Below are positions 480-41,123 of a DNA stretch of 42,812 nucleotides, one piece after another. Each line of letters opens with the position of its first letter. The first letter of the stretch is position 1. The translations under genes were made by a program, and so were the position numbers. The notes beneath the pieces are model-generated. The model had not been told where the DNA came from. It saw nothing but the letters and a program-made list of their open reading frames with translations, and made no database searches. The DNA comes from a virus (taxonomy: Duplodnaviria; Heunggongvirae; Uroviricota; Caudoviricetes), in IMG/VR virus record IMGVR_UViG_2872192773_000007; one strand, 5' to 3'.

Positions 480-1298
480 TTAAGCAGCCATCTGATGATA
501 TTTTTCCCTGAAGGCTGCCGGGGAGATATTCCCCAGACGAGAGTGACGACGCTGACGATTGTAGAAAATCTCAATGTATTCCCGTATTACTGAGATGGCT
601 TCATCCCGGTTATTAAAACGATAGTGGCTCAGGCTCTCATTTTTCAGCGTTCCCCAGAAGCTTTCCATCGGAGCGTTGTCGTAACAGTTACCTTTACGCG
701 ACATTGATGTTTTCAGACCAGACTGCTCCTGTATGACCCGGTAATCGTATGCGCAGTACTGTGAACCTCGATCAGAGTGGTGGATTAGCCCGGCAGGTGG
801 GCGCTGGCTCCTGAGCGCCATAAACAGGGCTTTACCTGTCAGCTCTTTTGTCATGCGCTCTCCCATGGCGTAGCCGACAATTTCACACGTATAAACATCT
901 TTGATGCCAGCGAGGTACAACCATCCCTCCTGTGTGGCAACATACGTCAGGTCCGCCACCCAGACCTGATTTGGTGCTGTAGGAGCGAACGTCTGGTTCA
1001 GCAGATTTGGCGCAACTGGCAGATTGTGGTTCGGGTTCGTAGTCGCTCTGAACTTGCGTTTCTGCTTACAGCGTAGCCTCAGCTCCTTACGAAGACGTGC
1101 CAGTCGGTCACGACCAACGATGATGCCATTCTCTGCCAGCTCCGTCTGGAGCCGCCGGGTTCCATATGTTTCGCGAGTGCGGATATGTGCCACCTTAATC
1201 TCCAGTGTTAGCCGCTCATCACTTTGTTTTCTGTCTGAGGGTTCATGCTGTACCCAGTTGTAATAACCGCTCCTGGATACACCAAATACCTGACACAT
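480..1298 (-). CDS. IS600 OrfB transposase (DDE, rve domain)
   Basis: 272-aa ORF. It has the IS3-family integrase-core motifs (WVADLTY, HSDRGSQY, CYDNAPMESFW). Confidence 0.95.
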   Translation of the reverse strand: MCQVFGVSRSGYYNWVQHEPSDRKQSDERLTLEIKVAHIRTRETYGTRRLQTELAENGIIVGRDRLARLRKELRLRCKQKRKFRATTNPNHNLPVAPNLLNQTFAPTAPNQVWVADLTYVATQEGWLYLAGIKDVYTCEIVGYAMGERMTKELTGKALFMALRSQRPPAGLIHHSDRGSQYCAYDYRVIQEQSGLKTSMSRKGNCYDNAPMESFWGTLKNESLSHYRFNNRDEAISVIREYIEIFYNRQRRHSRLGNISPAAFREKYHQMAA

Positions 1299-5411: not shown

Positions 5412-5468
5412 ATGAAATTAGCTATCAGGCTTCAATTACCGCTGGCATTCGCATCAAAGGAGAGGAGC

Positions 5469-5825
5469 ATGGAAATAAAACCAGAAGATGAGTTAAGCAA
5501 TATCGTTTTATTTCCGATAAAAGAGGATGACCCTCGTAATCAGGTTAATTTTCTTTATAAGCCATCGGAAAGACCATATTGCCATCACGCCTCTGTACGG
5601 GTTGACGAAAAAGAGCGTCAGGTCCGCTGTAAAATCTGCGGTGCGGTTGTGGAGCCGTTTGACTGGATGCTCTCTGTGGCAAAAAGAGAAACCAGACTGG
5701 CAGATGATGTAAGGCTATTGCGCCAGGAGGAACAGGAAAGGCGGAGAAATATAGAAAAGCTGATACAGATTGAGCGTAACGCGAAAGCGCGGATACGCAG
5801 GGCGACAAAATCCAGAACTGAATAA
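5469..5825 (+). CDS. Hypothetical phage protein (CxxC plus basic coiled-coil tail)
   Basis: The ORF is open from 5412. The internal ATG at 5469 is preceded by the strong RBS AAAGGAGAGGAG. Contains the motif CKICGAVVEPFDW. Confidence 0.55.
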   Translation: MEIKPEDELSNIVLFPIKEDDPRNQVNFLYKPSERPYCHHASVRVDEKERQVRCKICGAVVEPFDWMLSVAKRETRLADDVRLLRQEEQERRRNIEKLIQIERNAKARIRRATKSRTE

Positions 5826-5917
5826 TTAAATTTAGCACTGTTAAAAATTTAATCCTTAACCGGAGGGATTTCTGCACCCTCAAATCATCAGGAGACCGCC
5901 CGAAAGGGCGGTAATGA

Positions 5918-6136
5918 ATGGTTACATTATTTAGAAAAAAATATCCGCGAAAGAGTAGAACAACAGAATTCCTGTTTCTCATTCTGTTTATCGTGTTGAT
6001 GACACCGATATCCCCGCAAATTTTTGTCTGGATAATCGGAAAAATAATTGAGCCAGTTATTGAATTGTATAACGACGTGGTATGGGCGTCATTCAACACA
6101 CTGCACAATAAAATTAATCCGTATAAGGAAAGCTGA
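5918..6136 (+). CDS. Hypothetical small membrane protein (one TM helix)
   Basis: 72-aa ORF with the hydrophobic stretch FLFLILFIVLMTPISPQIFVWIIG. It is visibly AT-rich and its stop lies 1 nt before the HNH start. The RBS is weak. Confidence 0.35.
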   Translation: MVTLFRKKYPRKSRTTEFLFLILFIVLMTPISPQIFVWIIGKIIEPVIELYNDVVWASFNTLHNKINPYKES

Positions 6137-7165: not shown

Positions 7166-7530
7166 TGATTAATCGAACCAAACTGGAGCACATTCTCGAA
7201 TATGCCAGGCAGCAGAAATGTATTGGGCAACTTTGTAAAATTCCACCAGGAGATATGGTTGAAATCGTGGAAATGGCCATGCGTAAGGCTGGCAACTCTC
7301 CGGTAACTCTGGCTGGCTGGATAAGCTGTAGTGATGCAGTTCCTGCTGAATATTGCGATGTGATTCTTCTCGATGATCTCGGGAATGTATTCCCCGGTTC
7401 CTGGGATAAGGTTTTTTGCCCCACTCGTGGCGGGAATAAGATGGCTTTTGTGGACAAAGACGGCGTTGAAGTAGAGAGCTCAACTCACTGGATGCCGCTA
7501 CCGGAACCACCGCAGGAGGTGAATCAATGA
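7165..7530 (+). CDS. DUF551-type phage protein
   Basis: 121 aa with the C-terminal motif HWMPLPEPP typical of DUF551. Its start overlaps the previous stop. Confidence 0.7.
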   Translation: MINRTKLEHILEYARQQKCIGQLCKIPPGDMVEIVEMAMRKAGNSPVTLAGWISCSDAVPAEYCDVILLDDLGNVFPGSWDKVFCPTRGGNKMAFVDKDGVEVESSTHWMPLPEPPQEVNQ

Positions 7531-7610
7531 CCTGGCCTGAGGCATTCACCACGGTAGGAATTGCGATGGCGGTGGCGCTGGTGGTGTATTCGATTTGCCG
7601 TTGGGGTTAA
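7527..7610 (+). CDS. Small hydrophobic peptide (27 aa)
   Basis: ATGA overlap with the DUF551 stop. It translates to MTWPEAFTTVGIAMAVALVVYSICRWG and is followed directly by a terminator. Confidence 0.4.
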   Translation: MTWPEAFTTVGIAMAVALVVYSICRWG

Positions 7611-7615
7611 CAAAC

Positions 7616-7646
7616 AAAAACCCCGGATTGATGGTCCGGGGTTTTT
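7616..7646 (+). terminator. Rho-independent terminator
   Basis: Stem AAAAACCCCGGA / TCCGGGGTTTTT with a 7-nt loop and a T-run. Confidence 0.8.
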
Positions 7647-7867
7647 GAAGGAAACAAAACAGAAACAGCAATTGCCGTTACCTGTTGTTACCATGGCAAG
7701 TAAACGTATCTCAGGCGAGCGCATTGCGCCGTTCTGACGCAGATAAATTAGCCTGGATAGAAGGTGCTGGCAATAAAAAATAGCGTTTTCTTATCGGTAT
7801 CGGTAAGATTGCTGCGGGTGCTTGAGGCTGTCTGCCTCGGGCATGCCACTGTAAGGCAGACAGAGAA

Positions 7868-8628: not shown

Positions 8629-8645
8629 TAGGTAATGACTCCAAC

Positions 8646-9149
8646 TTACTGATAGTGTTTTATGTTCAGATAATGCCCGATGACCTTGTCATGCAGCTCC
8701 ACCGATTTTGAGAACGACAGTGACTTCCGTACCAGCCTTGCCAGATGTTGTCTCAGATTCAGATTATGTCGCTCAATGCGCTGAGTGTAACGCTTGCTGA
8801 TAACGTGCAGCTTTCCCTTCAGGCGTGATTCATACAGCGGACAGCCATCCGTCATCCATACCACGACCTCAAAGGCCGACAGCAGGCTCAGAAGACGCTC
8901 CAGTGTGGCCAGAGTGCGTTCACCGAAGACGTGCGCCACAACCGTCCTCCGTATCCTGTCATACGCGTAAAACAGCCAGCGCTGACGTGATTTAGCACCG
9001 ACGTAGCCCCAATGTTCGTCCATTTCAGCGCAGACAATCACATCACTGCCCGGTTGTATGCGCGAGGTTACCGACTGCGGCCTGAGTTTTTTAAGTGACG
9101 TAAAACCGTGTTGAGGCCAACGCCCATAATGCGTGCACTGGCGCGACAT
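8646..9149 (-). CDS. insB: IS1 InsB
   Basis: 167-aa ORF, identical to the copy at 16643..17146. Confidence 0.9.
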
Positions 9150-9343
9150 CCGACGCCATTCATGGCCATATCAATGATTTTCTGGTGCGTACCGGGCTGA
9201 GAGGCGGTGTAAGTGAACTGTAGTTGCCATGTTTTACGGCAATGAGAGCAGAGATAGCGCTGATGTCCGGCAGTGCTTTTGCCGTTACGCACCACGCCTT
9301 CAGTAGCGGAGCAGGAAGGACATCTGATGGAAATGGAAGCCAC
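9068..9343 (-). CDS. insA: IS1 InsA
   Basis: 91-aa [42 protein letters not shown], with a zinc finger and an HTH. Confidence 0.9.
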
Positions 9344-9476
9344 GCAAGCACCTTAAAATCACCATCATACACTAAATCAGTAAGTTGGCAGCATTACCCT
9401 GTTAGTATTGGCATTAATTCTGGTATACTACATAACGGGCTGAACACCCATTCTACTGCGCCAGCGGAGAACTACG

Positions 9477-11642: not shown

Positions 11643-12461
11643 ATGTGTCAGGTATTTGGTGTATCCAGGAGCGGTTATTACAACTGGGTACAGCATGAAC
11701 CCTCAGACAGAAAACAAAGTGATGAGCGGCTAAAACTGGAGATTAAGGTGGCACATATCCGCACTCGCGAAACATATGGAACCCGGCGGCTCCAGACGGA
11801 GCTGGCAGAGAATGGCATCATCGTTGGTCGTGACCGACTGGCACGTCTTCGTAAGGAGCTAAGGCTACGCTGTAAGCAGAAACGCAAGTTCAGAGCGACT
11901 ACGAACCCGAACCACAATCTGCCAGTTGCGCCAAATCTGCTGAACCAGACGTTCGCTCCTACAGCACCAAATCAGGTCTGGGTGGCGGACCTGACGTATG
12001 TTGCCACACAGGAGGGATGGTTGTACCTCGCTGGCATCAAAGATGTTTATACGTGTGAAATTGTCGGCTACGCCATGGGAGAGCGCATGACAAAAGAGCT
12101 GACAGGTAAAGCCCTGTTTATGGCGCTCAGGAGCCAGCGCCCACCTGCCGGGCTAATCCACCACTCTGATCGAGGTTCACAGTACTGCGCATACGATTAC
12201 CGGGTCATACAGGAGCAGTCTGGTCTGAAAACATCAATGTCGCGTAAAGGTAACTGTTACGACAACGCTCCGATGGAAAGCTTCTGGGGAACGCTGAAAA
12301 ATGAGAGCCTGAGCCACTATCGTTTTAATAACCGGGATGAAGCCATCTCAGTAATACGGGAATACATTGAGATTTTCTACAATCGTCAGCGTCGTCACTC
12401 TCGTCTGGGGAATATCTCCCCGGCAGCCTTCAGGGAAAAATATCATCAGATGGCTGCTTAA
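11643..12461 (+). CDS. IS600 OrfB transposase
   Basis: 272-aa ORF. Confidence 0.95.
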   Translation: MCQVFGVSRSGYYNWVQHEPSDRKQSDERLKLEIKVAHIRTRETYGTRRLQTELAENGIIVGRDRLARLRKELRLRCKQKRKFRATTNPNHNLPVAPNLLNQTFAPTAPNQVWVADLTYVATQEGWLYLAGIKDVYTCEIVGYAMGERMTKELTGKALFMALRSQRPPAGLIHHSDRGSQYCAYDYRVIQEQSGLKTSMSRKGNCYDNAPMESFWGTLKNESLSHYRFNNRDEAISVIREYIEIFYNRQRRHSRLGNISPAAFREKYHQMAA

Positions 12462-13222: not shown

Positions 13223-13299
13223 GGCCCTTTAGCTCAGTTGGTCAGAGCGAGCGACTCATAATCGCCAGGTCGCTGGTTCAAGTCCAGCAAGGGCCACCA
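13223..13299 (+). tRNA. tRNA with anticodon CAU (ileX/ileZ-like Ile2, or Met)
   Basis: Cloverleaf: acceptor GGCCCTT/AAGGGCC, anticodon loop CTCATAA, T-arm GCTGG-TTCAAGT-CCAGC, terminal CCA. It resembles E. coli ileX as I recall it. Confidence 0.85.
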
Positions 13300-13300
13300 A

Positions 13301-13377
13301 CCACCACTAGCTCATCCGGATAGAGCATCAACCTTCTAAGTTGACGGTGCGAGGTTCGAGTCCTCGGTGGTGGGCCA
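13301..13377 (+). tRNA. tRNA-Arg (anticodon UCU)
   Basis: Acceptor CCACCAC/GTGGTGG, anticodon arm TCAAC-CTTCTAA-GTTGA, T-arm CGAGG-TTCGAGT-CCTCG, terminal GCCA. Confidence 0.85.
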
Positions 13378-13379
13378 GC

Positions 13380-13455
<76 letters not shown>

Positions 13456-13458
13456 TAT

Positions 13459-13533
<75 letters not shown>

Positions 13534-13647: not shown

Positions 13648-13720
13648 ATGATTCAGCTATCCAGTAGTCACAAACTTCCAGCAGTCTACTATCTCTACCA
13701 GCGTAACGGCGTCTACTACT
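13648..13720 (+). pseudogene. Tyrosine recombinase (integrase), N-terminal 24 codons only
   Basis: ATG 13648 encodes MIQLSSSHKLPAVYYLYQRNGVYY, ending at the IS911 end. It lies 115 nt downstream of tRNA-Gly in the same orientation, the classic tRNA-int island layout. Confidence 0.6.
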
Positions 13721-13728
13721 TGAAGTGG

Positions 13729-14897
<1,169 letters not shown>

Positions 14898-14969
14898 TGG
14901 AGCACCTGTGTTGTTCTGAGGTGAGCATATCACCTCTGTTCAGGTGGCCAAATTCAGTGTGCCACTTCA

Positions 14970-15389
14970 CTACCCGGTAAGAGCATCAAGAACGCTCATA
15001 GTGACCGCTGTGTGCCTCTGGTCGATGGGGCCTATGGTTTTATATTGGCTGACTTTATGGCGCTTGTAGAGACCCGTAGAGGCGCTGACGGTGATGACGC
15101 TATGGTGTTCGATGGTCTGCGTCTCATGAAGAACGGTTACGGTGAGCAGGTGAGTAAATGGTTTAATCGGACGTTGTTGCCTAAAGTCCTCGTAGACCGT
15201 AGCGGCTTAGCGTTTCACTCGTTTAGACATACAGTTGCGACCCAGTTAAAACAACATGGGGTCGAGTTGGCGTATGCACAGGCGATCATGGGGCATAGTT
15301 CAGGGTCTATTACGTACGACCGTTATGCTAAAGAGGTCGAGGTTGATAGGCTGGTCAATGTGATGGCTGATGTTTATAAGGAGACCTAG
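14970..15389 (+). pseudogene. Tyrosine recombinase C-terminal catalytic domain (5'-deleted)
   Basis: The in-frame translation from 14970 is LPGKSIKNAHSDRCVPLV...LAFHSFRHTVATQL...GHSSGSITYDRY. This gives the R...HxxR...Y catalytic residues, while the core-binding domain is missing. Confidence 0.8.
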
Positions 15390-15477
15390 AGGAGACCATA
15401 GTCTAGGATGACACTTACTACAGACCTGTGTGGTCATGTTTTTGACTCATAGTTTTCTCTACTTATCAAGGGATAAT

Positions 15478-15500
15478 TAATACGACTCACTATAGGGAGA
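15478..15500 (+). promoter_or_regulatory. Exact consensus bacteriophage T7 RNA polymerase class III promoter
   Basis: TAATACGACTCACTATAGGGAGA is read directly at 15478-15500 and is preceded by AATT. The predicted +1 is G15495, with transcription towards the repeats and the Rha-like gene. Confidence 0.9.
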
Positions 15501-15697
15501 AGGGACACAAAAAGTTTTCTCTTCTAGGACAACTAACCGTAACTTATCGCATCCTTTCAGGGGCGGGATGACCAATTACAGACACCAAGCGTTCTACTTA
15601 AAGTGAATGCTTCCTGTGTGCTCTGGGTCAGTCGATAAGTGAATAGCAATAAGACACAATCATCTTAATTATGGTCTCTAGTCCCTACAGGGGCTTA

Positions 15698-15791
15698 ACT
15701 TAAAGTTAACTTAAAGACACAATTAAAGATTAACTTATAGTATTACTTAAAGTTAACTTAAAGACACAATTAGAGATTAACTTTAAGTATT
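15698..15791 (+). repeat. 47-bp tandem repeat x2 built from TTAAAG-type submotifs
   Basis: Unit 1 (15698-15744) is ACTTAAAGTTAACTTAAAGACACAATTAAAGATTAACTTATAGTATT. Unit 2 (15745-15791) differs at 3 positions. Confidence 0.9.
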
Positions 15792-15882
15792 AAATAAAAG
15801 ATTTAATTAAAGACCAATTAAAGATTAACTCTAAGGGAATACCTTAAGGGGTGATGATATTTATAATAATCAATCACCAAAC

Positions 15883-15935
15883 CTATAGGTCTTCTCTAGG
15901 GTCTCTCTATAGGTCTCTCTAGGGTCTCCTCTAGG
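15883..15935 (+). repeat. Array of about 11-bp CTCTA(T)AGGGTCT repeats
   Basis: The sequence reads CTATAGGTCTTCTCTAGGGTCTCTCTATAGGTCTCTCTAGGGTCTCCTCTAGG. Confidence 0.85.
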
Positions 15936-15954
15936 CATTACCCCCAGAAGCTAA

Positions 15955-15986
15955 CTCTATGGCCCTCTATGGTCCTCTATGGCCCT
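15955..15986 (+). repeat. 10-bp tandem repeat CTCTATGGCC x3
   Basis: CTCTATGGCC CTCTATGGTC CTCTATGGCC CT. Confidence 0.9.
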
Positions 15987-16031
15987 GTACGTCATTCTTT
16001 AGGATGCCCTGTAGTTTCGTATAGCCTGATG

Positions 16032-16070
16032 CCTAGAGAGACCCTAGAGTGGCTCCTAGAGAGACCCTCC
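16032..16070 (-). repeat. Inverted copies of the CTCTAGGGTCTC repeat
   Basis: CCTAGAGAGACCCTAGAG ... CCTAGAGAGACCCTCC is the reverse complement of the 15883-15935 units. The two sets form a dyad around the 10-bp triplet repeat. Confidence 0.85.
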
Positions 16071-16228
16071 CAGTAGCTCCGCACAGCTACATCGTCATCA
16101 TCATAGTATTCAATCTCAAAGTCATTCTGTTTGCATCCTGTTGTCCTGCTGGTCTCCCTTCGCTTGGGGACTTTGAGTAGGTCAGTGGGGGTGCGACTTC
16201 AGGGTGCAAACAAAAAGGAAATCAAGCG

Positions 16229-16393
16229 ATGTCTCAACAACCACAACAACCACAACAACCACAACAAGAAATCAGCATCATTAACCTCGACCAGCTTGTG
16301 TCCATGACCTCAGTTGAAATTGCTGAGCTGACAGGCAAGGAGCACCGAAATGTCCTTCGTGATATTCGTAAGATGCTCGAAGAACTTAACGCG
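16229..16393 (+). pseudogene. Rha-family phage regulatory protein, N-terminal 55 codons, truncated by IS1
   Basis: RBS AAGGAA, then MSQQPQQPQQPQQEISIINLDQLVSMTSVEIAELTGKEHRNVLRDIRKMLEEL. The segment TSxEIAELTGKxHxNVLRDIRxML is the Phage_pRha signature. IS1 starts at 16394. Confidence 0.7.
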
Positions 16394-16448
16394 GGTAATG
16401 CTGCCAACTTACTGATTTAGTGTATGATGGTGATTTTAAGGTGCTTGC

Positions 16449-16724
16449 GTGGCTTCCATTTCCATCAGATGTCCTTCCTGCTCCGCTACTGAAGGCGTGG
16501 TGCGTAACGGCAAAAGCACTGCCGGACATCAGCGCTATCTCTGCTCTCATTGCCGTAAAACATGGCAACTACAGTTCACTTACACCGCCTCTCAGCCCGG
16601 TACGCACCAGAAAATCATTGATATGGCCATGAATGGCGTCGGATGTCGCGCCAGTGCACGCATTATGGGCGTTGGCCTCAACACGGTTTTACGTCACTTA
16701 AAAAACTCAGGCCGCAGTCGGTAA
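16449..16724 (+). CDS. insA: IS1 InsA
   Basis: 91-aa ORF. Confidence 0.9.
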
Positions 16725-17146
16725 CCTCGCGCATACAACCGGGCAGTGATGTGATTGTCTGCGCTGAAATGGACGAACATTGGGGCTACGTCGGTGCTAA
16801 ATCACGTCAGCGCTGGCTGTTTTACGCGTATGACAGGATACGGAGGACGGTTGTGGCGCACGTCTTCGGTGAACGCACTCTGGCCACACTGGAGCGTCTT
16901 CTGAGCCTGCTGTCGGCCTTTGAGGTCGTGGTATGGATGACGGATGGCTGTCCGCTGTATGAATCACGCCTGAAGGGAAAGCTGCACGTTATCAGCAAGC
17001 GTTACACTCAGCGCATTGAGCGACATAATCTGAATCTGAGACAACATCTGGCAAGGCTGGTACGGAAGTCACTGTCGTTCTCAAAATCGGTGGAGCTGCA
17101 TGACAAGGTCATCGGGCATTATCTGAACATAAAACACTATCAGTAA
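16643..17146 (+). CDS. insB: IS1 InsB
   Basis: 167-aa ORF. Confidence 0.9.
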
Positions 17147-17161
17147 GTTGGAGTCATTACC

Positions 17162-18110
17162 AAAAAAAGCAACAGCGTATTTTGCACAGGAGTCGCTGAA
17201 AAATACGCGTTAATCGAACAATGGCGACAACAATTTCCCATTGAAGCGATGTGTCAGGTATTTGGTGTATCCAGGAGCGGTTATTACAACTGGGTACAGC
17301 ATGAACCCTCAGACAGAAAACAAAGTGATGAGCGGCTAAAACTGGAGATTAAGGTGGCACATATCCGCACTCGCGAAACATATGGAACCCGGCGGCTCCA
17401 GACGGAGCTGGCAGAGAATGGCATCATCGTTGGTCGTGACCGACTGGCACGTCTTCGTAAGGAGCTGAGGCTACGCTGTAAGCAGAAACGCAAGTTCAGA
17501 GCGACTACGAACCCGAACCACAATCTGCCAGTTGCGCCAAATCTGCTGAACCAGACGTTCGCTCCTACAGCACCAAATCAGGTCTGGGTGGCGGACCTGA
17601 CGTATGTTGCCACACAGGAGGGATGGTTGTACCTCGCTGGCATCAAAGATGTTTATACGTGTGAAATTGTCGGCTACGCCATGGGAGAGCGCATGACAAA
17701 AGAGCTGACAGGTAAAGCCCTGTTTATGGCGCTCAGGAGCCAGCGCCCACCTGCCGGGCTAATCCACCACTCTGATCGAGGTTCACAGTACTGCGCATAC
17801 GATTACCGGGTCATACAGGAGCAGTCTGGTCTGAAAACATCAATGTCGCGTAAAGGTAACTGTTACGACAACGCTCCGATGGAAAGCTTCTGGGGAACGC
17901 TGAAAAATGAGAGCCTGAGCCACTATCGTTTTAATAACCGGGATGAAGCCATCTCAGTAATACGGGAATACATTGAGATTTTCTACAATCGTCAGCGTCG
18001 TCACTCTCGTCTGGGGAATATCTCCCCGGCAGCCTTCAGGGAAAAATATCATCAGATGGCTGCTTAAAAAAAGAACAAATGGTAGTGTCCGCTATTGCCA
18101 GTACACCTCA
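17162..18110 (+). mobile_element. IS600, 5'-truncated (corresponds to IS600 positions 316-1264)
   Basis: It starts inside the A7 run at the end of orfA and ends at the normal right IR (...GTACACCTCA). The left 315 bp is replaced by IS1. Confidence 0.9.
17249..18067 (+). CDS. IS600 OrfB (orphan, no OrfA)
   Basis: 272-aa ORF, intact, but without orfA or a frameshift partner. Confidence 0.8.
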   Translation: MCQVFGVSRSGYYNWVQHEPSDRKQSDERLKLEIKVAHIRTRETYGTRRLQTELAENGIIVGRDRLARLRKELRLRCKQKRKFRATTNPNHNLPVAPNLLNQTFAPTAPNQVWVADLTYVATQEGWLYLAGIKDVYTCEIVGYAMGERMTKELTGKALFMALRSQRPPAGLIHHSDRGSQYCAYDYRVIQEQSGLKTSMSRKGNCYDNAPMESFWGTLKNESLSHYRFNNRDEAISVIREYIEIFYNRQRRHSRLGNISPAAFREKYHQMAA

Positions 18111-18463
18111 GTAATCCATCCAGGCCTGTTGTTGCAGAGCTTGGCGATGATTCAGGCTGGCATTTTTTCAGCCAGAGAAACCCGGATAACAGCATAGTGT
18201 TCACTGTTAACGGACAGGTAATTCCGTTAAATTACGGAAACTTCGATGCCCGCTATAAATATCGAACAGAGGGGGTACAGGATGTACGGTATGGCCATGA
18301 AATGTATTACAGCCCCGGCAGTAACACCGTTTCGTGGAGATTTTGCGCACCTTCGGGACACGGGCTGTCAGGGATGGCGATATCGGATACCGGCCGTAAC
18401 TCAGCGGATAACGTTGACGGTGTGTATTACCGACCACTGCAAAAACTGATTAATGGCACCTAG
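18111..18463 (+). pseudogene. Phage tail-fibre protein, C-terminal fragment
   Basis: Past the IS600 end the frame reads ...AELGDDSGWHFFSQRNPDNSIVFTVNGQVIPLNYG...YYRPLQKLINGT*. The TAG at 18461 is followed in frame by YNVASI*, suggesting TGG>TAG. A tfa gene follows 3 nt later. Confidence 0.65.
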
Positions 18464-18485
18464 TATAACGTAGCGAGTATTTAAC

Positions 18486-19031
18486 AATGTTGCATTTAAA
18501 AAATATTACTACGGGTAATCCGAAAACAGCAGAACAATATCAGATGACAAAACGATATTCGGTCACCTGGCTTTTTTCAGAAGACGGAAAAAACTGGTAT
18601 GAAGAGCTGAAGAATTTCGCCAGGACACAATTAAAATAACTTACACCGGAGACGGTCGCGTGGTGTGGGTCGGTAAGGATGTGACAGGCATTGAACCCCG
18701 TAACGCCAGTGTTATTGAAGTTCCTGATATTACCGCCAACCGCCGCATTACCGCGCCGGGTTACTGGTTTTACCGCAATGATGAATTTGTCTTTGACTAC
18801 AGACTCAAAGCGGAAGATGAGCGTGATGCCCTTCTGGCTCAGGTCAGTGCCCGGACAGGGGAATGGGAAGAAGACCTGTTGCTGGGGCTAATCAGCGACG
18901 AAGACCGGGAAAAACTGAAAGCGTACCGCATTTACGCGAAATCGCTGCAGGCGATGGATTTCAGTGTCATCACTGATAAAACCTCATACAACGCCATTGA
19001 ATGGCCCGCTTCTCCGGAAATTTCTTCCTGA
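18486..19031 (+). pseudogene. Tail-fibre assembly protein (Tfa), frameshifted
   Basis: [19 protein letters not shown]...[11 protein letters not shown] stops at 18638. The homologous continuation, (Q)[20 protein letters not shown]...IEWPASPEISS, lies in another frame (ORF 18660..19031). Confidence 0.7.
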
Positions 19032-25580: not shown

Positions 25581-25635
25581 GGTAATGCTGCCAACTTACT
25601 GATTTAGTGTATGATGGTGATTTTAAGGTGCTTGC

Positions 25636-25911
25636 GTGGCTTCCATTTCCATCAGATGTCCTTCCTGCTCCGCTACTGAAGGCGTGGTGCGTAACGGCAA
25701 AAGCACTGCCGGACATCAGCGCTATCTCTGCTCTCATTGCCGTAAAACATGGCAACTACAGTTCACTTACACCGCCTCTCAGCCCGGTACGCACCAGAAA
25801 ATCATTGATATGGCCATGAATGGCGTCGGATGTCGCGCCAGTGCACGCATTATGGGCGTTGGCCTCAACACGGTTTTACGTCACTTAAAAAACTCAGGCC
25901 GCAGTCGGTAA
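25636..25911 (+). CDS. insA: IS1 InsA
   Basis: 91-aa ORF. Confidence 0.9.
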
Positions 25912-26333
25912 CCTCGCGCATACAACCGGGCAGTGATGTGATTGTCTGCGCTGAAATGGACGAACATTGGGGCTACGTCGGTGCTAAATCACGTCAGCGC
26001 TGGCTGTTTTACGCGTATGACAGGATACGGAGGACGGTTGTGGCGCACGTCTTCGGTGAACGCACTCTGGCCACACTGGAGCGTCTTCTGAGCCTGCTGT
26101 CGGCCTTTGAGGTCGTGGTATGGATGACGGATGGCTGGCCGCTGTATGAATCACGCCTGAAGGGAAAGCTGCACATTATCAGCAAGCGTTACACTCAGCG
26201 CATTGAGCGACATAATCTGAATCTGAGACAACATCTGGCAAGGCTGGTACGGAAGTCACTGTCGTTCTCAAAATCGGTGGAGCTGCATGACAAGGTCATC
26301 GGGCATTATCTGAACATAAAACACTATCAGTAA
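25830..26333 (+). CDS. insB: IS1 InsB (variant: W and I substitutions relative to the other two copies)
   Basis: 167-aa ORF. It reads [20 protein letters not shown] where the other copies read [20 protein letters not shown]. Confidence 0.9.
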
Positions 26334-26348
26334 GTTGGAGTCATTACC

Positions 26349-28020: not shown

Positions 28021-28361
28021 TTACACCGGAATATTCTCATCGTATCCTGCTTGTTGCGTTTCGTTTTGTGTTTGTGGATCCGGGAATGCATATTCAACGC
28101 CTTCCAGTTCAATCCATAGTGCATTACGACCAGCTTTGATTGTCGGCCAGTCCATACCTTTGATTCTTTCCCATGAGCGGGAGGTGAATGTTTTTTCCAG
28201 CAAATCAGCTTTTGCGCGTTTGGCGTCGTTACTGGTGCCCCCATGGTGCTTGTTGAGCAACTCGATAATTTCATCAAGTTAATTTCATCAAGTGCGATTT
28301 CTTTTGCACGCTTTTCTTTTAGCCATGTCGGTGTACCGTCGTTGGCAAATAATTCACTGTT
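28021..28361 (-). pseudogene. Hypothetical early-left phage gene, 5'-truncated by IS911 and frameshifted by a 14-bp tandem duplication
   Basis: The reading ...NSELFANDGTPTWLKEKRAKEIALDEI is broken at the duplicated TAATTTCATCAAGT (28266-28293). It then continues as ...ELLNKHHGGTSNDAKRAKADLLEKTF...DENIPV*. Confidence 0.55.
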
Positions 28362-28369
28362 TGAAGTGG

Positions 28370-29538
<1,169 letters not shown>

Positions 29539-29610
29539 TGGAGCACCTGTGTTGTTCTGAGGTGAGCATATCACCTCTGTTCAGGTGGCCAAATTCAGTG
29601 TGCCACTTCA

Positions 29611-29861
29611 CAGCCATGTACCGGATGTGTTCTGCCATGCGCTCCTGAAACTCAACATCATCATCAAATGCGTGGCTGATTGCCTGTTTATTGGCACCGT
29701 GGCGTTGCAAATGGTCGATGCAGAGCGATTCAAACAGGTGCTGAGGCAGACCTTTTTCCAGGTCGTCCGCCAGTTCCGTTTCTTTTTCTTCACGAACGAT
29801 CTGCTGGTAGTGACGAGCCCATGCCATTTCTTCAATACGATCAAAAATCGGATAAGCGCTC
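29611..29861 (-). pseudogene. gam: Lambda Gam-like RecBCD inhibitor, truncated at both ends (IS600 / IS911)
   Basis: ...[70 protein letters not shown] closely parallels lambda Gam as I recall it. Confidence 0.85.
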
Positions 29862-30263: not shown

Positions 30264-31082
30264 ATGTGTCAGGTATTTGGTGTATCCAGGAGCGGTTATT
30301 ACAACTGGGTACAGCATGAACCCTCAGACAGAAAACAAAGTGATGAGCGGCTAAAACTGGAGATTAAGGTGGCACATATCCGCACTCGCGAAACATATGG
30401 AACCCGGCGGCTCCAGACGGAGCTGGCAGAGAATGGCATCATCGTTGGTCGTGACCGACTGGCACGTCTTCGTAAGGAGCTGAGGCTACGCTGTAAGCAG
30501 AAACGCAAGTTCAGAGCGACTACGAACCCGAACCACAATCTGCCAGTTGCGCCAAATCTGCTGAACCAGACGTTCGCTCCTACAGCACCAAATCAGGTCT
30601 GGGTGGCGGACCTGACGTATGTTGCCACACAGGAGGGATGGTTGTACCTCGCTGGCATCAAAGATGTTTATACGTGTGAAATTGTCGGCTACGCCATGGG
30701 AGAGCGCATGACAAAAGAGCTGACAGGTAAAGCCCTGTTTATGGCGCTCAGGAGCCAGCGCCCACCTGCCGGGCTAATCCACCACTCTGATCGAGGTTCA
30801 CAGTACTGCGCATACGATTACCGGGTCATACAGGAGCAGTCTGGTCTGAAAACATCAATGTCGCGTAAAGGTAACTGTTACGACAACGCTCCGATGGAAA
30901 GCTTCTGGGGAACGCTGAAAAATGAGAGCCTGAGCCACTATCGTTTTAATAACCGGGATGAAGCCACCTCAGTAATACGGGAATACATTGAGATTTTCTA
31001 CAATCGTCAGCGTCGTCACTCTCGTCTGGGGAATATCTCCCCGGCAGCCTTCAGGGAAAAATATCATCAGATGGCTGCTTAA
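30264..31082 (+). CDS. IS600 OrfB
   Basis: 272-aa ORF, with one substitution (EATSVIRE) relative to the other copies. Confidence 0.95.
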   Translation: MCQVFGVSRSGYYNWVQHEPSDRKQSDERLKLEIKVAHIRTRETYGTRRLQTELAENGIIVGRDRLARLRKELRLRCKQKRKFRATTNPNHNLPVAPNLLNQTFAPTAPNQVWVADLTYVATQEGWLYLAGIKDVYTCEIVGYAMGERMTKELTGKALFMALRSQRPPAGLIHHSDRGSQYCAYDYRVIQEQSGLKTSMSRKGNCYDNAPMESFWGTLKNESLSHYRFNNRDEATSVIREYIEIFYNRQRRHSRLGNISPAAFREKYHQMAA

Positions 31083-38155: not shown

Positions 38156-39871
38156 TTATGAATGGTGCAGTTGTGAGCCGTTTTCAGGCAATCGCAGGGC
38201 CAGTACCTCGTCAGTCAGCTGACGGTAAATCTGCTGTTCAGTCTCACGCATCACCTGTGCACCGGCTTCCCTCTCCGCATCCGCATCACCGCTCAGACCT
38301 GATGCTTTCAGCCGGTCAGCCACCCTCTGAGGGTACTCATTCTCCAGCATCTCATATTTCTGCTCTTCTGCCAGCGCCCAGCGGTCAGCTTCCGTACGCT
38401 TCAGTACAGCATGCCATGGTCCCCAGAGGGAGAACCAGTCCGTAAATTCATTCTCTTCACGGCTTCTGACCATGGCTTCGGCAGTGCGGAGGTCATTTGC
38501 TGTCACTCCCGACACGCCATAGAAACGCATTTCCTTCACGGCAGTGGAGAGCTGAAGTTTCTCTGCGAGCATGGTCTGGAAGGCCAGGTAGACTTCTATC
38601 TCATCCACAAAATGGAGAGTTCTGACTTTATCCCGGGCAATATCCTCCAGAATTTCGAGGCGGAACATTTCCCTGCCCAGGGAGAGCAGAGCGCCGGTAT
38701 CATTATCGAAAAGGCCTTCTGATGCCTGATGGACCAGGAGGGTTTTCCGGAGATTGTTCCATGTGAGCGCGACACGGTCCTCACAGCTTTCAGTGGCATC
38801 AGCAGCAACAGCGAAAGACTGCTGTCGAAGCTCTGCAGAGGTACTGAGTTTTTCCAGCCATGCAGCGACCTGTTCACGGAATCCGGAGGTATTGCGTGCA
38901 GAGACGGTATCGGAAAGGCGGTCAAGGAACGCGGAAAAGGTGTTGGCGTGCTCTTCATGTTCAAAAGCATGCCATATCTGTGATACATCAGATTGTTTGT
39001 TTTCCGGGAACCATGCTGTCACGGCATCAGCCAGGGGGCGATGGAGTGTATTCTGTTGTCCGTCACTCATGGAGAAGTAAATCCGTGGGCCGTGGTAGTC
39101 CGGTTGGGCGGTTTGTTGCGACAGAGACTCCCTGATCCGTGAGGACAGAGGATTGTCTTCGAGGATGATAGTGCAGGTCGGATCAAGGCTAAGTATATTT
39201 TCCGGAATGTGTGTGATGCGATTCTCGCGGCACCGGAAAAATATCTCGGTTTCCTCTGAGTGATGATTTCTTACAGGTACGGCTGGTAGGCTTTCCAGAA
39301 GATTAGTACTTACATCGAGCGCTTCCAGTGATTCAGGTAACTCAGGGAGAAATGTCAGCTGGTTATTTCTTACTGAGAGCACTTCCAGCGATGTAGGTAA
39401 TTCAGGAAGCATGGTTAGCTGATTGTTATCTGCATTAATATATTCCAGCAATGCAGGCAATTCAGGAAGCATGGTTAGTTGGTTGTTATCTACATCAAGA
39501 TGTTTCAGAGATGCGGGTAATTCAGGAAGTGTTGACAGGCGATTGTCACAGGCGTCAAGGTATTCCAGCGATGCTGGCAATTCTGGTAATGATATTAGGG
39601 CATTCTGAGTAATTTCCAGAACAGTGATTTGAGGTGGTAAGTTGTCAGGTAGCGAGGACAGATTTAAACGATTCAGTTGAAGCTCACTGAACTGATTGAT
39701 GAGACATTCTTTAAGTAGGGAGACCGCTTCATTCCGATTTTCACCGGGGAGCGCTTGTTTTTCCCATTTATCCCATGCTGAAAAGTAATCAGCATATGTA
39801 CCGGAAATAGTGTTATAAAAAGAATTTTGGGACAATGAAAAGTTATTATTTATCGGTAACATGATGGACAT
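38156..39871 (-). CDS. ipaH: IpaH-family type III secreted NEL E3 ubiquitin ligase (LRR + novel E3 ligase domain)
   Basis: 571-aa ORF. The canonical start is probably the MLPINNNFSL Met at 39862. It has LRR repeats (LPELPxSLxxLxxxxNQLTxLPE) and a conserved C-terminal domain with the catalytic-Cys motif ESCEDRVALTWNNL. Confidence 0.95.
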   Translation of the reverse strand: MSIMLPINNNFSLSQNSFYNTISGTYADYFSAWDKWEKQALPGENRNEAVSLLKECLINQFSELQLNRLNLSSLPDNLPPQITVLEITQNALISLPELPASLEYLDACDNRLSTLPELPASLKHLDVDNNQLTMLPELPALLEYINADNNQLTMLPELPTSLEVLSVRNNQLTFLPELPESLEALDVSTNLLESLPAVPVRNHHSEETEIFFRCRENRITHIPENILSLDPTCTIILEDNPLSSRIRESLSQQTAQPDYHGPRIYFSMSDGQQNTLHRPLADAVTAWFPENKQSDVSQIWHAFEHEEHANTFSAFLDRLSDTVSARNTSGFREQVAAWLEKLSTSAELRQQSFAVAADATESCEDRVALTWNNLRKTLLVHQASEGLFDNDTGALLSLGREMFRLEILEDIARDKVRTLHFVDEIEVYLAFQTMLAEKLQLSTAVKEMRFYGVSGVTANDLRTAEAMVRSREENEFTDWFSLWGPWHAVLKRTEADRWALAEEQKYEMLENEYPQRVADRLKASGLSGDADAEREAGAQVMRETEQQIYRQLTDEVLALRLPENGSQLHHS

Positions 39872-40220: not shown

Positions 40221-41123
40221 AAATCAGCCGGAGATGATTTTACATAATTGCTACGGAATTATTCAATACAGGAATTGCTTGCGTCTGCATGGATTGACCT
40301 GAAATATTCCCGAAAATTTCTCTAAAAAACTCGAAAAAAATGGTAACTGGTTGAATGTATTAATATGCAATGGTACGTGTCAGGGATTAAAAGATGAACG
40401 TAAATTTATTCAACGCATTAATTTTAAAGGGTTTTATTGTTTGTTGACGAAAACAGGAATCATGTTCGGTCTCTTTTTATCTGTTAAAAGCCAGAAGCAT
40501 TTCCTTCGCTGACTTTATAGTCAACCATAACACACACTCTACTGTCTGAGTCCAGCGTTTTTTAACATTCTTGTTAAGATTATGTGATCTTTAGCGCGGG
40601 AGGAAAATATTGATGAAACAGCCTGCGCCCGTTTATCAGAGAATTGCGGGTCATCAATGGCGACATATCTGGCTTTCTGGCGATATACACGGTTGTCTTG
40701 AGCAGTTGCGCCGCAAATTATGGCATTGTCGTTTTGATCCGTGGCGAGATTTACTTATCTCAGTGGGAGACGTTATCGATCGTGGGCCGCAAAGTTTACG
40801 TTGTCTGCAGTTACTGGAACAACATTGGGTTCGTGCGGTAAGAGGCAATCATGAACAGATGGCGATGGATGCGCTGGCATTCCAGCAGATGTCTTTGTGG
40901 TTGATGAATGGCGGCGACTGGTTTATTGCGCTGGCAGATAATCAACAGAAACAAGCGAAAACGGCGCTGGAAAAATGTCAGCATTTGCCCTTTATTCTTG
41001 AAGTACACAGTCGCACCGGCAAGCATGTTATTGCTCATGCCGATTATCCAGATGATGTTTGAGGTAGCCTGAGTTTAACGGACACTCCTTCCTGAAATAG
41101 AATGGCATCAGAAGGAGCTAATA

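Follow-up and report, generated by a model that had tools for sequence, protein, structure and literature searches.

The window analysed in this study, a stretch of 42,812 nucleotides of DNA, carries a perfect T7 promoter with an extremely AT-rich block of TTAAAG words behind it, and the question raised by this locus is what such a block may be doing there. The first-pass annotation had compared it to a T7 origin or genome left end and had considered a role as an origin and/or as a packaging mimic. Our analysis has placed the block in a small island integrated at tRNA-Gly. We give about an even chance to the reading that it is the AT-rich half of a T7-type RNA polymerase-primed origin, by which the island would exploit T7-like phages.

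The island in the window and its relatives

The tRNA-Gly gene at 13459-13533 forms the left attachment side of the island and aligns with the glyU side of the related E. coli island L001; in the relatives the 3' end of the tRNA is repeated at the far island end. An insertion sequence of 1,251 bp has taken away roughly 400 codons from the start of the integrase gene. The surviving part (14964-15383) shows 97.9% identity to the L001 integrase in tblastn, residues 1-399 being lost, and the full-length relative of this integrase is matched by Pfam Phage_integrase. The cargo gene fragment left by IS1 (16229-16392) also matches PHROG anti-repressor families, and further IS1 copies, 99.7-100% identical, are found at 8631-9399 and 25581-26348. 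The window copy is an IS-truncated remnant in which the cis module is intact.

The related islands are 4.2-6.6 kb long and are integrated at tRNA-Gly in E. coli, Klebsiella, Proteus, Citrobacter and other genera. They encode a tyrosine recombinase of 544 aa, and the 3' end of tRNA-Gly recurs in them as direct repeats of 17-27 bp lying 4.2-6.6 kb apart; it is in these relatives that an integrase and attachment sites bounding a discrete element are present. The family is apparently undescribed previously, as no description of it or of a natural T7 satellite was found in the literature searched. The first-pass annotation had not noticed that the block belongs to a family of mobile tRNA-Gly mini-islands.

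Many copies encode RAZR (PD-T7-4), an anti-T7 defence gene, which in many islands sits directly after the integrase and overlaps it (PADLOC E = 1.9e-101 and 8.3e-99), and the regulator downstream of the same block is Rha in the window and KilA-N in L004. Screening of the island proteins, with Pfam, PHROGs and PADLOC for the E. coli-type genes and Pfam and PADLOC for the genes of L007, L012 and L023, revealed no recognisable replication initiator or primase and none that would redirect packaging or capsids. A PDB sequence search with two of these genes gave no match. Family and PDB sequence searches gave no identification for a 157-aa protein, gene A and gene C (~330-400 aa), and gene B matched DUF6971 alone.

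Promoters matched to the phages of the host are directly observed in the family. The E. coli islands carry T7-type promoters; the Klebsiella islands carry K11-type AATTAGGGCACACTATAGGGAG and Przondovirus-type AATTAGGTAGCAC... promoters, the latter being found in 262 Klebsiella phage records with 10-12 sites each; and the Proteus and Kluyvera islands carry ICP3-type promoters. The promoter is sometimes duplicated or triplicated, promoter cassettes are shuffled among island copies, and promoter specificity tracks the T7-like phages of the host. An extra promoter sits between the module and the first gene in the relatives, and hence the module is not needed simply for cargo expression. In the window, the ~88-bp deletion has removed this second T7-like promoter of the island, AATACGACTTACTAATAGGAGA, which is kept in L001, L004, L038, L044 and L053.

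The IS-ridden state of the window copy may also be read as the sign of an inert relic, left over from a degraded temperate T7-like prophage and having no present function; integrase-bearing T7-like phages do exist (LUZ100). However, many genera have intact islands flanked by direct repeats, in which the compact order is the same and phage structural and replication genes are missing. Moreover, a near-invariant leader, perfect host-phage-matched promoters and cassette exchange among copies are not what a relic would lead one to expect, and beyond the promoters there is no significant homology to deposited phages. We consider this explanation very improbable.

Anatomy of the cis module

The module consists, in this order, of one or more phage RNA polymerase promoters, a leader of ~100 nt, a G-run, a TTAAAG array, an AT-loop hairpin and repeats rich in GGGTC/TGGTC (Table 1). 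This anatomy and its conservation were directly observed: about 30 related copies retain the order from promoter(s) through leader, G-run and AT array to hairpin, with the array varying in length. Distant islands with unrelated leaders show the same architecture, having G-runs upstream of arrays of ACCTAAAG, GACCTTAAG or CTTAAAG together with an AT-loop hairpin.

Table 1. Coordinates of the island features in the window.
Feature	Position	Strand	Remarks
tRNA-Gly (TCC)	13459-13533	+	ARAGORN; end of Met-Arg-Thr-Gly tRNA cluster
Insertion sequence, 1,251 bp	13720-14970		100% identical second copy at 28361-29611
Integrase remnant	14964-15389	+	Residues 400-539 of a ~544-aa tyrosine recombinase, with remaining codons and stop
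T7 class III consensus promoter, perfect	15478-15500	+	TAATACGACTCACTATAGGGAGA, +1 at 15495
Leader of ~100 nt, conserved	15541-15640	+	Predicted to be structured; downstream of phage promoter
Junction TGGTCTCTAGTCCCTACAGGGGCTTA	15672-15697	+	TGGTC primase-type site, then G-run abutting the AT array
AT-rich TTAAAG array	15698-15848	+	Includes 47-bp duplication 15698-15791; 3' end is ATTAACTCTAAGGGAATACCTTAAGG
Hairpin palindrome	15850-15878	+	GGTGATGAT[ATTTATAATA]ATCAATCACC
Short-repeat field	15883-16068		Three repeat types
GGTCTCTCTAG x4	15883-15935		In short-repeat field
CTCTATGGCC x3	15955-15989		In short-repeat field
Inverted CCTAGAGAGACC copies	16032-16068		In short-repeat field
Deletion junction	16071-16076		~88 bp lost relative to L001 10155-10243 (blastn breakpoints)
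5' untranslated region of first cargo gene	16100-16228	+	Inverted repeat 16125-16145 / 16195-16215
Rha/Ant-type regulator, N-terminal fragment	16229-16392	+	Pfam Phage_pRha E = 6e-10
IS1	16393-17161		Cuts Rha/Ant-type cargo gene

The promoter TAATACGACTCACTATAGGGAGA agrees with the consensus at 23/23 positions and matches T7 phiOR and phiOL. The AT-rich block at 15675-15880 was found with all the features described in the first-pass annotation, including its distance of about 180 bp from the promoter (+1 G at 15495, block start at 15675). Its GC content is 25.7%, while the window as a whole has 49%, and no other 206-nt stretch of the 42.8 kb is so rich in AT. TTAAAG occurs seven times on its + strand (15 times in the whole window) against 0.19 +/- 0.43 expected from mononucleotide shuffles of the block, and the complement CTTTA has a single occurrence in it. 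The 47-bp tandem duplication is real, 15698-15744 and 15745-15791 being identical at 44/47 positions, and Tandem Repeats Finder gave periods of 11, 23 and 47 in the block. Across the ~30 related copies the array is 40-224 nt long, and TAAAG is strand-asymmetric in every one of them; all close relatives carry such an AT-rich region in the orientation of the promoter. We propose the array as a putative unwinding and RNA-to-DNA transition zone. The 'TCTC' with which the block starts is a mere 4-nt likeness to the start of T7 and was given no weight.

The leader is nearly invariant across genera and is predicted to be closed by the stem ACUUAUCG/CGAUAAGU. RNAalifold gave 34 pairs, four of them with compensatory changes that come mostly from the Klebsiella sequence; the folding z-score is -1.8, and the search against Rfam returned a chance miRNA match alone (E = 0.14). 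The G-run (GGGG at 15690-15693 in the window) keeps its place relative to the leader anchor, at +143 to +150, throughout the ~30 copies. At the other end of the array, the palindrome-flanked AT core GGTGAT...ATCACC was also confirmed (GGTGATGATATTTATAATAATCAATCACC at 15850-15878). As single-stranded DNA the hairpin has a folding energy of -4.8 kcal/mol (z = -2.4), and its stems GGTGAT/ATCACC are invariant across copies with loops of 7-17 nt.

T7 helicase-primase recognises 5'-(G/T)GGTC-3' or GTGTC. Primase-type sites are present on the + strand as TGGTC at 15672 and 15970 and as GGGTC at 15899 and 15922. The non-coding region has 18 such pentamers against 4.0 +/- 2.0 in shuffles, an excess which has its source in the tandem repeats and is missing from L007, L009 and L021. 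A likeness of the repeat field to the arrays flanking the T7 terminal repeat was considered and set aside, as it consists largely of one word, CATCCTAAAGA, matching many T7 copies. Further downstream, 16100-16228 is conserved in L001, L004 and L008 although it precedes different genes. Promoter-like sites for sigma-70 occur in the module region at no higher frequency than in shuffles, and the search for intrinsic terminators there was negative.

Leader, array and hairpin, all of which follow the promoter on the transcribed strand, may act as one non-coding RNA made by the phage polymerase. Such an RNA could serve as a sensor or decoy, or could regulate the phage or the genes downstream, for instance by mimicking T7 mRNA leaders, and the array would matter as RNA rather than as DNA. 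The near-invariance, predicted structure and compensatory changes of the leader agree with this possibility, as do the invariant stems with loops of varying length, as would be expected if a single strand folds, and the words such as TTAACTTTAAG which the array shares with transcribed T7 leaders. However, the array tolerates a gain or loss of repeats over the whole range of 40-224 nt, no Rfam family was matched, and the leader has a z-score of just -1.8 with no terminator after it. A function in RNA is also compatible with priming, as a primer RNA would look identical. We regard a purely RNA-level role as unlikely.

Comparison with T7 origins and T7 genome ends

T7 replication starts at phi1.1A/B, with phiOR and phi6.5 as secondary origins (PMC8373140, citing Rabkin and Richardson 1988). 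The 7- and 8-mers of the block are enriched at two of these places, on the + strand only, with 26 shared words against 8.3 +/- 3.7 for T7 5820-6010 (primary origin) and 21 against 7.9 +/- 3.4 for T7 18430-18650 (phi6.5); none of the 500 shuffles (0/500) reached either count. A local alignment scan that took in every 150-nt window of the two genomes, T7 and K11, gave the best alignments at 5951, 401, 201, 18551 and 39326 in T7 and at 40526, 5801, 17801 and 501 in K11, all on the + strand. The T7 sites lie just downstream of phi1.1B, phi6.5, phiOR and phiOL, the last being a further T7 secondary origin, and the K11 sites lie at the equivalent promoters. The top alignment scores were 31-50, where the genome median is ~15 and the 99th percentile ~27; natural AT-rich controls from the window scored 24-30 at scattered sites. 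The hairpin has a counterpart in position and sequence after phiOR in T7, T3, K11 and Kvp1. The resemblance to a T7 origin proposed in the first-pass annotation is thus borne out as a motif-level likeness, which is directly observed.

Several observations count against the origin reading. The AT region of T7 lies tens of nucleotides from its promoter and the island array 180 nt; the conserved island leader has no phage counterpart; the words of the block are also common to T7 intergenic leaders generally; and L012, L015 and L020 have promoters with a weak or absent AT-rich block.

The similarity to T7-like phages anticipated in the first-pass annotation exists at the T7 and K11 origin promoters at the level of motifs, but it does not extend to significant homology. 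In blastn of 15400-16230 against 50,697 phage records nothing was found at E <= 1e-5, and at E <= 10 the matches were short, individually insignificant and mostly to T7-like Klebsiella phages. For the Proteus island the match to phages was confined to the promoter. The resemblance between block and phages is one of motif and architecture.

Protein binding offers another explanation for phased TTAAAG repeats (11-12 bp) next to a palindrome, which may bind H-NS, IHF or an island protein for silencing or regulation with no link to replication. AT-rich phased repeats, here with periods of 11, 23 and 47, are typical of binding and curvature elements, and the islands encode KilA-N or Rha DNA-binding proteins. 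Yet the same block stands beside different regulators in the window and in L004, and the variable distance between the arms of the hairpin (7 to 17 nt) speaks against a site for a dimeric protein. General silencing also fails to explain the oriented likeness to origins or the strand asymmetry of TAAAG, and we hold this explanation to be quite improbable.

As regards the genome end, the first-pass annotation was right about T7, which starts with TCTCACAG and has a CCTAAAG array after its terminal repeat (12 TAAAG in T7 173-373). The island array is TTAAAG-based, and ACCTAAAG occurs in L008 and L021. The counts for the block against the left-hand T7 array were reached by 8/500 shuffles at k = 7 and 2/500 at k = 8, and there was no enrichment against the right-hand repeat array or the phiOR window. 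No terminal-repeat-like sequence was found in the island. The element GTGTCCCTATCTGTT, which T7 and K11 share at the right edge of their repeats, has no match within three mismatches in 15390-16228. Its core ATCTGTT, the class II pause core of the T7 junction (PacB + PacC), does not occur in the non-coding parts of the window, L001, L004, L007, L012 and L023. In the absence of a terminal repeat and junction element, the origin reading is supported and the genome-end or packaging reading is not; of the dual role suggested in the first-pass annotation, the resemblance to an origin has stood, whereas the likeness to a genome left end or concatemer junction was not upheld.

The block and adjacent repeats may still imitate a T7 end for the terminase, alone or beside an origin function. 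T7 has CCTAAAG arrays, oriented in the same way, flanking its terminal repeat, and L008 and L021 use exactly ACCTAAAGACC. The reverse complement of 15880-16080 shares 22 words with T7 143-343 (3.8 +/- 3.6 expected) and 19 with T7 39604-39804 (6.6 +/- 3.6), an excess that stems largely from the one word noted above. The hairpin has its counterpart after phiOR, an origin reportedly needed for efficient plasmid packaging, and small islands of 4.2-6.6 kb with intact flanking repeats are expected of elements packaged as concatemers. Apart from the missing terminal repeat, GTGTCCCTATCTGTT and ATCTGTT and the lack of k-mer enrichment in the right-hand array and phiOR window, this imitation is opposed by the finding of no island sequence among the 50,697 phage records, and it appears unlikely to us.

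No circles, concatemers or copy-number signal were seen in the assemblies examined (IMG/VR, ENA and metagenome contigs), which also counts against the origin reading. The three IMG/VR matches are contigs of 6.3-44.5 kb, longer than the island, and the two with the tRNA side align as integrated; the ENA contigs of ~4.2 kb contain the tRNA, and their ends do not overlap; and among 21 metagenome contigs those reaching an island end have the integrated arrangement, the others being too short. In the plasmid collection IS1 was the sole match.

Proposed function and comparison with known systems

A possible course of events, all steps of which are inferred, can be outlined as follows. The phage RNA polymerase would start at the island promoter (15478-15500) and transcribe the structured leader and the G-run. 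The transcript would then stay hybridised in the easily melted TTAAAG array and be extended by the phage DNA polymerase. At the hairpin and the GGGTC/TGGTC sites exposed on the displaced + strand, the helicase-primase of the phage could load and prime in the opposite direction. The outcome would be a helper-dependent amplification of the island and, with it, a higher dose of cargo genes such as KilA-N or Rha and, in many copies, RAZR. The amplified island could also compete with the phage for replication proteins, and the amplification would yield concatemers that might be transduced.

Further, the mini-islands may tentatively be seen as a novel class of elements that operate by pure cis-mimicry, either minimal satellites of virulent T7-like phages or defence cassettes that replicate. 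They would have no replication or packaging proteins of their own and would rely on the helper promoter and origin mimicry for transcription, amplification and possibly transduction as concatemers; the interchangeable promoter cassettes would set the triggering phages, and the TTAAAG array with the hairpin would be the origin.

Few virulent phages have been studied as thoroughly as T7. Wild strains of E. coli, Klebsiella and their relatives harbour mobile mini-islands in which perfect promoters for the local T7-like phages stand beside an origin-like module, often together with RAZR. If the origin works, these would be natural host elements borrowing the whole transcription and replication apparatus of a phage through DNA mimicry alone. 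They would then provide a mechanism for infection-triggered amplification, and perhaps spread, of defence genes, as well as naturally evolved orthogonal sets of promoter and origin parts. The role of the hairpin conserved after phiOR in T7-group phages may also be approached through the island copy.

The overlap of RAZR with the integrase fits the remark in a passage of the PD-T7-4 preprint that the homologues 'often overlap an integrase gene' (bioRxiv 10.1101/2022.05.12.491691). That passage mentions the overlapping integrase alone and not the module of promoter, leader, AT array and hairpin, and in the RAZR paper (PMC13017515) the terms 'integrase' and 'satellite' are absent. The window copy and the L001/L004 type differ from this locus in having no RAZR.

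Plasmids with a T7 origin and concatemer junction are reported to be packaged during infection (Chung and Hinkle 1990, cited in PMC9860248). Such engineered plasmids, to which the T7 ori plasmids of PMC8373140 also belong, resemble the islands in being small and without replication genes of their own, and the islands, like them, would be expected to be replicated wholly by T7 proteins from a promoter-based origin. The plasmids are laboratory constructs of authentic T7 DNA including the junction needed for packaging, whereas the islands are natural, integrate themselves by their own recombinase and have no recognisable junction.

The closest architectural counterpart compared here is the T7 origin itself. 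Both have a phage RNA polymerase promoter, sometimes in tandem, followed by a co-directional AT-rich region with the same word family (TTAACTTTAAG, ATTAAAGA, ACTTTAAGTAT, AACTCTAAG) and the GGTGAT...ATCACC AT-loop hairpin as after phiOR. (G/T)GGTC primase-type sites also lie nearby, but are not in excess in L007, L009 and L021. On the other hand, the island module is chromosomal and bacterial rather than in a phage, it has a leader and G-run with 180 nt between promoter and AT region, and its array has been expanded through tandem duplication, with no significant blastn homology.

PICMIs of Vibrionaceae integrate next to fis, use three core proteins for excision and replication, and are packaged as concatemers (PMC10803314). 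Like the islands, they are very small, integrative and linked to virulent phages, with defence cargo and no capsid-remodelling genes (PMC10803314). The islands are putative satellites. Whereas PICMIs depend on their core proteins, the islands use a tRNA-Gly site and, in place of a recognised replication protein, have helper-type RNA polymerase promoters and an origin-like cis module.

The AT-rich block and T7-like replication origins

The block lies in non-coding DNA flanked on one side by the 3' end of a tyrosine-recombinase gene and on the other by a gene for a Rha-type regulator, and the features described for it in the first-pass annotation were found to be present. The promoter upstream, TAATACGACTCACTATAGGGAGA, is a perfect T7 consensus, and the block begins 180 nt past its start site. 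With 25.7% GC against 49% in the whole window, it is the lowest-GC 206-nt stretch of all 42.8 kb in a window scan. TTAAAG occurs 7 times on its + strand compared with about 0.2 in composition-matched shuffles of the block (15 in the whole window), and the complement CTTTA is present in a single copy. The 47-bp tandem duplication has an identity of 44/47, sub-periods of 11 and 23 were also detected within the block repeats, and the palindrome GGTGATGATATTTATAATAATCAATCACC lies at 15850-15878.

The same annotation had likened the block to a T7 origin or genome end. Its 7- and 8-mers were compared with T7 regions using 500 dinucleotide-preserving shuffles; 26 were found in the primary origin region (5820-6010; 8.3 +/- 3.7 in shuffles) and 21 in the phi6.5 region (7.9 +/- 3.4), counts attained by 0/500 shuffles and with enrichment on the + strand only. 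The left-hand repeat array plus the region of phiOL, which is likewise an origin in T7, gave a weaker enrichment, and neither the phiOR window nor the right-hand array gave any. Strings common to the block and T7 include TTAACTTTAAG, TTAATTAGAGATTTAAATTAAAGA, ACTTTAAGTAT and AAGATTTAACTCTAAGAGGAAT. In a local alignment scan of all 150-nt windows on both strands of the T7 and K11 genomes, the top alignments were all on the + strand, with scores of 31-50 where the genome has its median at about 15 and its 99th percentile at about 27; eight natural AT-rich stretches of the window, taken as controls, reached 24-30, with hits scattered over both strands. Replication of T7 is described as starting at phi1.1A/B, with phiOR and phi6.5 as secondary origins (PMC8373140). 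The resemblance to origin regions was borne out at motif level by k-mers and alignments, but the genome-end part was not, as no terminal repeat was found in the island (the small tRNA-Gly integrative element to which the block belongs) and neither the right-edge element of the T7/K11 repeats, GTGTCCCTATCTGTT, nor its core ATCTGTT has a copy in its non-coding DNA.

A counterpart of the island hairpin stands at the corresponding position, about 100 nt past phiOR, in four phages (Table). Folded as single-stranded DNA, phage and island hairpins are similar and modest (-3.3 to -6.9 kcal/mol). In the T7 group this AT-loop hairpin lies just upstream of gene 19.5, and both stem arms vary between phages.

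Table. Positions of the features in the window, fetched loci (L) and reference phages
Feature	Sequence	Position	Remark
T7 consensus promoter	window	15478-15500	
Leader	window	15541-15640	
AT-rich block	window	15675-15880	
Tandem duplication	window	15698-15744 / 15745-15791	
Palindrome	window	15850-15878	
Short tandem repeats	window	15379-15440, 15883-16068	
Short tandem repeats	L004 (FT130)	5436-5590	
Short tandem repeats	L001	9430-9460	
Inverted repeat in cargo 5' untranslated region	window	16125-16215	
Integrase remnant	window	14964-15383	residues 400-539
tRNA cluster	window	13223-13533	Met (CAT), Arg (TCT), Thr (TGT), Gly (TCC)
tRNA-Gly	window	13459-13533	
1,251-bp element, 2 copies	window	13720-14970, 28361-29611	first copy in integrase gene
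IS1, 3 copies	window	8631-9399, 16393-17161, 25581-26348	second copy in Rha gene
272-aa transposase ORF, 5 copies	window	480-1298, 11643-12461, 17249-18067, 30264-31082, 41462-42280	
Promoter slots	L007 (Klebsiella)	7276-7825	also L035-L051
RAZR (DUF4145/HEPN RNase)	L008; L029; L030; L007	6609-7230; 1861-2502; 1842-2483; 6609-7241	directly after integrase gene
Gene C	L007; L012; L014; L020; L023	9614-10822; 9775-10761; 9806-10870; 9877-10857; 9505-10602	
Top alignments, +	T7	5951; 401; 201; 18551; 39326	first after phi1.1B, second after phiOL, fourth after phi6.5
Top alignments, +	K11	40526; 5801; 17801; 501	first after phiOR, second after promoter behind RNA polymerase gene
Hairpin	T7	39329-39355	GGTGAT[..]ATCACC
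Hairpin	T3 (L033)	~240-265	GGTGATAT[..]ATAATCACC
Hairpin	K11	40603-40625	GAGGGTAGTGAT[..]ATCACCCTC
Hairpin	Kvp1 (L034)	~323-352	GGGATG[..]CATCCC

Mini-islands and their conserved module

The promoter-to-block module was found in 91 of 5,426 complete E. coli genomes, every copy being chromosomal and none annotated. In E. coli NCTC10973, FT130 and E110019 it belongs to an element of 4.2-4.3 kb at the glyU tRNA-Gly gene, and the borders of this element are direct repeats (23 bp) of the tRNA's 3' end. The element runs from a 544-aa integrase through roughly 1 kb of non-coding sequence to a KilA-N gene, with a 157-aa gene added in some. The integrase family is >80% identical across E. coli, Shigella, Klebsiella, Serratia, Yersinia, Citrobacter, Raoultella and Plesiomonas. 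Comparison of 20 species-representative loci and 21 metagenome contigs gave islands of 4.2-6.6 kb with a shared order: integrase, optional RAZR, 1-3 phage promoters, leader, G-run, AT array, hairpin, short repeats, additional phage promoter, conserved 5' untranslated region, gene A (KilA-N, Rha or other), gene B (~160 aa; DUF6971 in Klebsiella) and optional gene C (~330-400 aa). The gene C protein, common to larger islands and 29-81% identical between genera, has no match in Pfam and PADLOC, and its Klebsiella member has no PDB sequence match; it is a candidate for the core function of the island. Blastn against deposited phages gave no significant homology, the plasmids searched hold no copy, and no excised, circular or concatemeric island was present in any assembly examined.

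The window's island copy is a decayed remnant. A 1,251-bp insertion sequence has deleted all of the integrase gene except its last part, IS1 interrupts the Rha gene, and a deletion of ~88 bp at about 16076 has removed the promoter between module and cargo gene. The remnant adjoins the tRNA-Gly (TCC) of a tight four-tRNA cluster, whereas E. coli copies use chromosomal glyU, and the genes around the cluster suggest a lambdoid prophage remnant. Other genes there are Shigella-like, lambdoid prophage remnants among them (IpaH, a metal ABC transporter, a DnaC-like protein and RecE); repeated insertion sequences crowd the window and have broken up island and adjacent prophage genes.

One rival explanation takes the block as an inert relic, and beside the decay of this copy stands the constancy of the module in about 30 copies with a common leader. 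The G-run is fixed at +143 to +150 from the leader anchor, and the array, of 40-224 nt, has 21-29% GC, with higher values in the two shortest, 41-nt arrays (37% in L008, 32% in L043). Each array holds 2-10 TAAAG on the + strand against 0-2 of the complement. GGTGAT...ATCACC stems are invariant among copies with that hairpin (loops 7-17 nt), and a RAZR-bearing E. coli sub-family and L008 carry a different hairpin in its place. The module order also holds in distant islands whose leaders are unrelated, with array units ACCTAAAG, GACCTTAAG or CTTAAAG and hairpin stems differing on both arms, e.g. TGGGATTGAT...ATCATCCCA in Lonsdalea. A second rival, a protein-binding or silencing array, may be read from the repeats and has to be set beside this strand bias.

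By the T7 primase-type site definition given in PMC12839067, such pentamers number 18 in the non-coding region of the window, compared with 4.0 +/- 2.0 in shuffles, and the FT130 copy has 32 (G/T)GGTC sites on both strands compared with 6.4 +/- 2.4; this excess stems from tandem repeats and some sub-families are without it. The short tandem repeats beside the module are variable, e.g. GATGACCATAGGC (~12 copies in FT130), CTATGTGGTCC and GGTCTCTCTAG.

The leader of ~100 nt between promoter and block is nearly invariant across genera (window, L001, L004-L008, L013, L024, L026-L055). Its predicted structure has the closing stem ACUUAUCG/CGAUAAGU, with compensatory changes at four predicted pairs, mainly from the Klebsiella sequence. 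No Rfam family was matched, by the leader or otherwise, and no phage counterpart of the leader was found; sigma-70 promoter-like sites are not in excess and no terminator was found. A third rival holds that the leader-array-hairpin transcript acts at the RNA level. The same block precedes different genes (Rha in the window, KilA-N in FT130) and a separate promoter lies between module and cargo genes, hence the module is more than just an extended 5' leader of the cargo. The 5' untranslated region of the first cargo gene is kept whether Rha or KilA-N stands behind it, and its 21-nt inverted repeat TTCTGTTTGCATCCTGTTGTC / GACTTCAGGGTGCAAACAAAA, beside the ribosome-binding site, may be a translational control element.

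Promoter specificity and the RAZR gene

E. coli copies have 1-3 T7 consensus promoters each. Klebsiella copies carry a T7-type promoter plus AATTAGGGCACACTATAGGGAG, which through +5 (22/23 positions) is identical to the K11 phi1.05 promoter, and also AATTAGGTAGCACTATAGGGAG, with matches in 262 records of T7-like Klebsiella phages, 10-12 sites per record. Proteus and Kluyvera copies have AATTAACCCACACTATAGGGAG, matching promoters of ICP3 and N4, both T7-like phages of Vibrio, and additional variants occur in other genera. That promoter and host vary together is the strongest evidence for a family tuned to the RNA polymerases that infecting T7-like phages bring in. Klebsiella-type copies have three slots filled by T7-type, K11-type or Przondovirus AATTAGGTAGCAC-type cassettes in combinations that vary by copy; the mixed cassettes suggest an exchange that widens or alters the range of triggering phages.

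The optional gene behind the integrase is the anti-T7 defence gene RAZR, earlier named PD-T7-4 (PADLOC E = 1.9e-101 and 8.3e-99). It adjoins the integrase in many islands, the two genes overlapping in L029 and L030, and is absent from the window's copy. RAZR is described as a HEPN RNase that the T7 portal protein switches on (PMC13017515), and the discovery preprint states that PD-T7-4 'often overlaps an integrase gene' (10.1101/2022.05.12.491691). In the former, searched by terms, and in the PD-T7-4 passage of the latter, the cis module is not mentioned.

Proposed function and known systems

The best-supported reading of the sequence comparisons is that the block would supply the AT-rich half of a T7-type origin primed by RNA polymerase, in a host mini-island that would be transcribed, and probably replicated, by the infecting phage. 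The phage transcript may prime DNA synthesis in the array, while the hairpin and primase-type sites would be offered on the displaced strand, where the helicase-primase could load. Amplification of the island would increase the dosage of its defence and regulatory genes, and may set it in competition with the phage. The island might conceivably also be packaged as concatemers, since engineered plasmids that carry a T7 origin together with the junction do become packaged (Chung and Hinkle 1990, cited in PMC9860248), but no junction mimic was found in the island.

The island falls outside the defined satellite families, since its integration site differs and it is without recognised replication or hijacking proteins. 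Closest to it among known systems are the origins of T7 itself, T7-origin plasmids built in the laboratory, the RAZR locus and PICMI, the mini-satellites of virulent vibriophages (PMC10803314).
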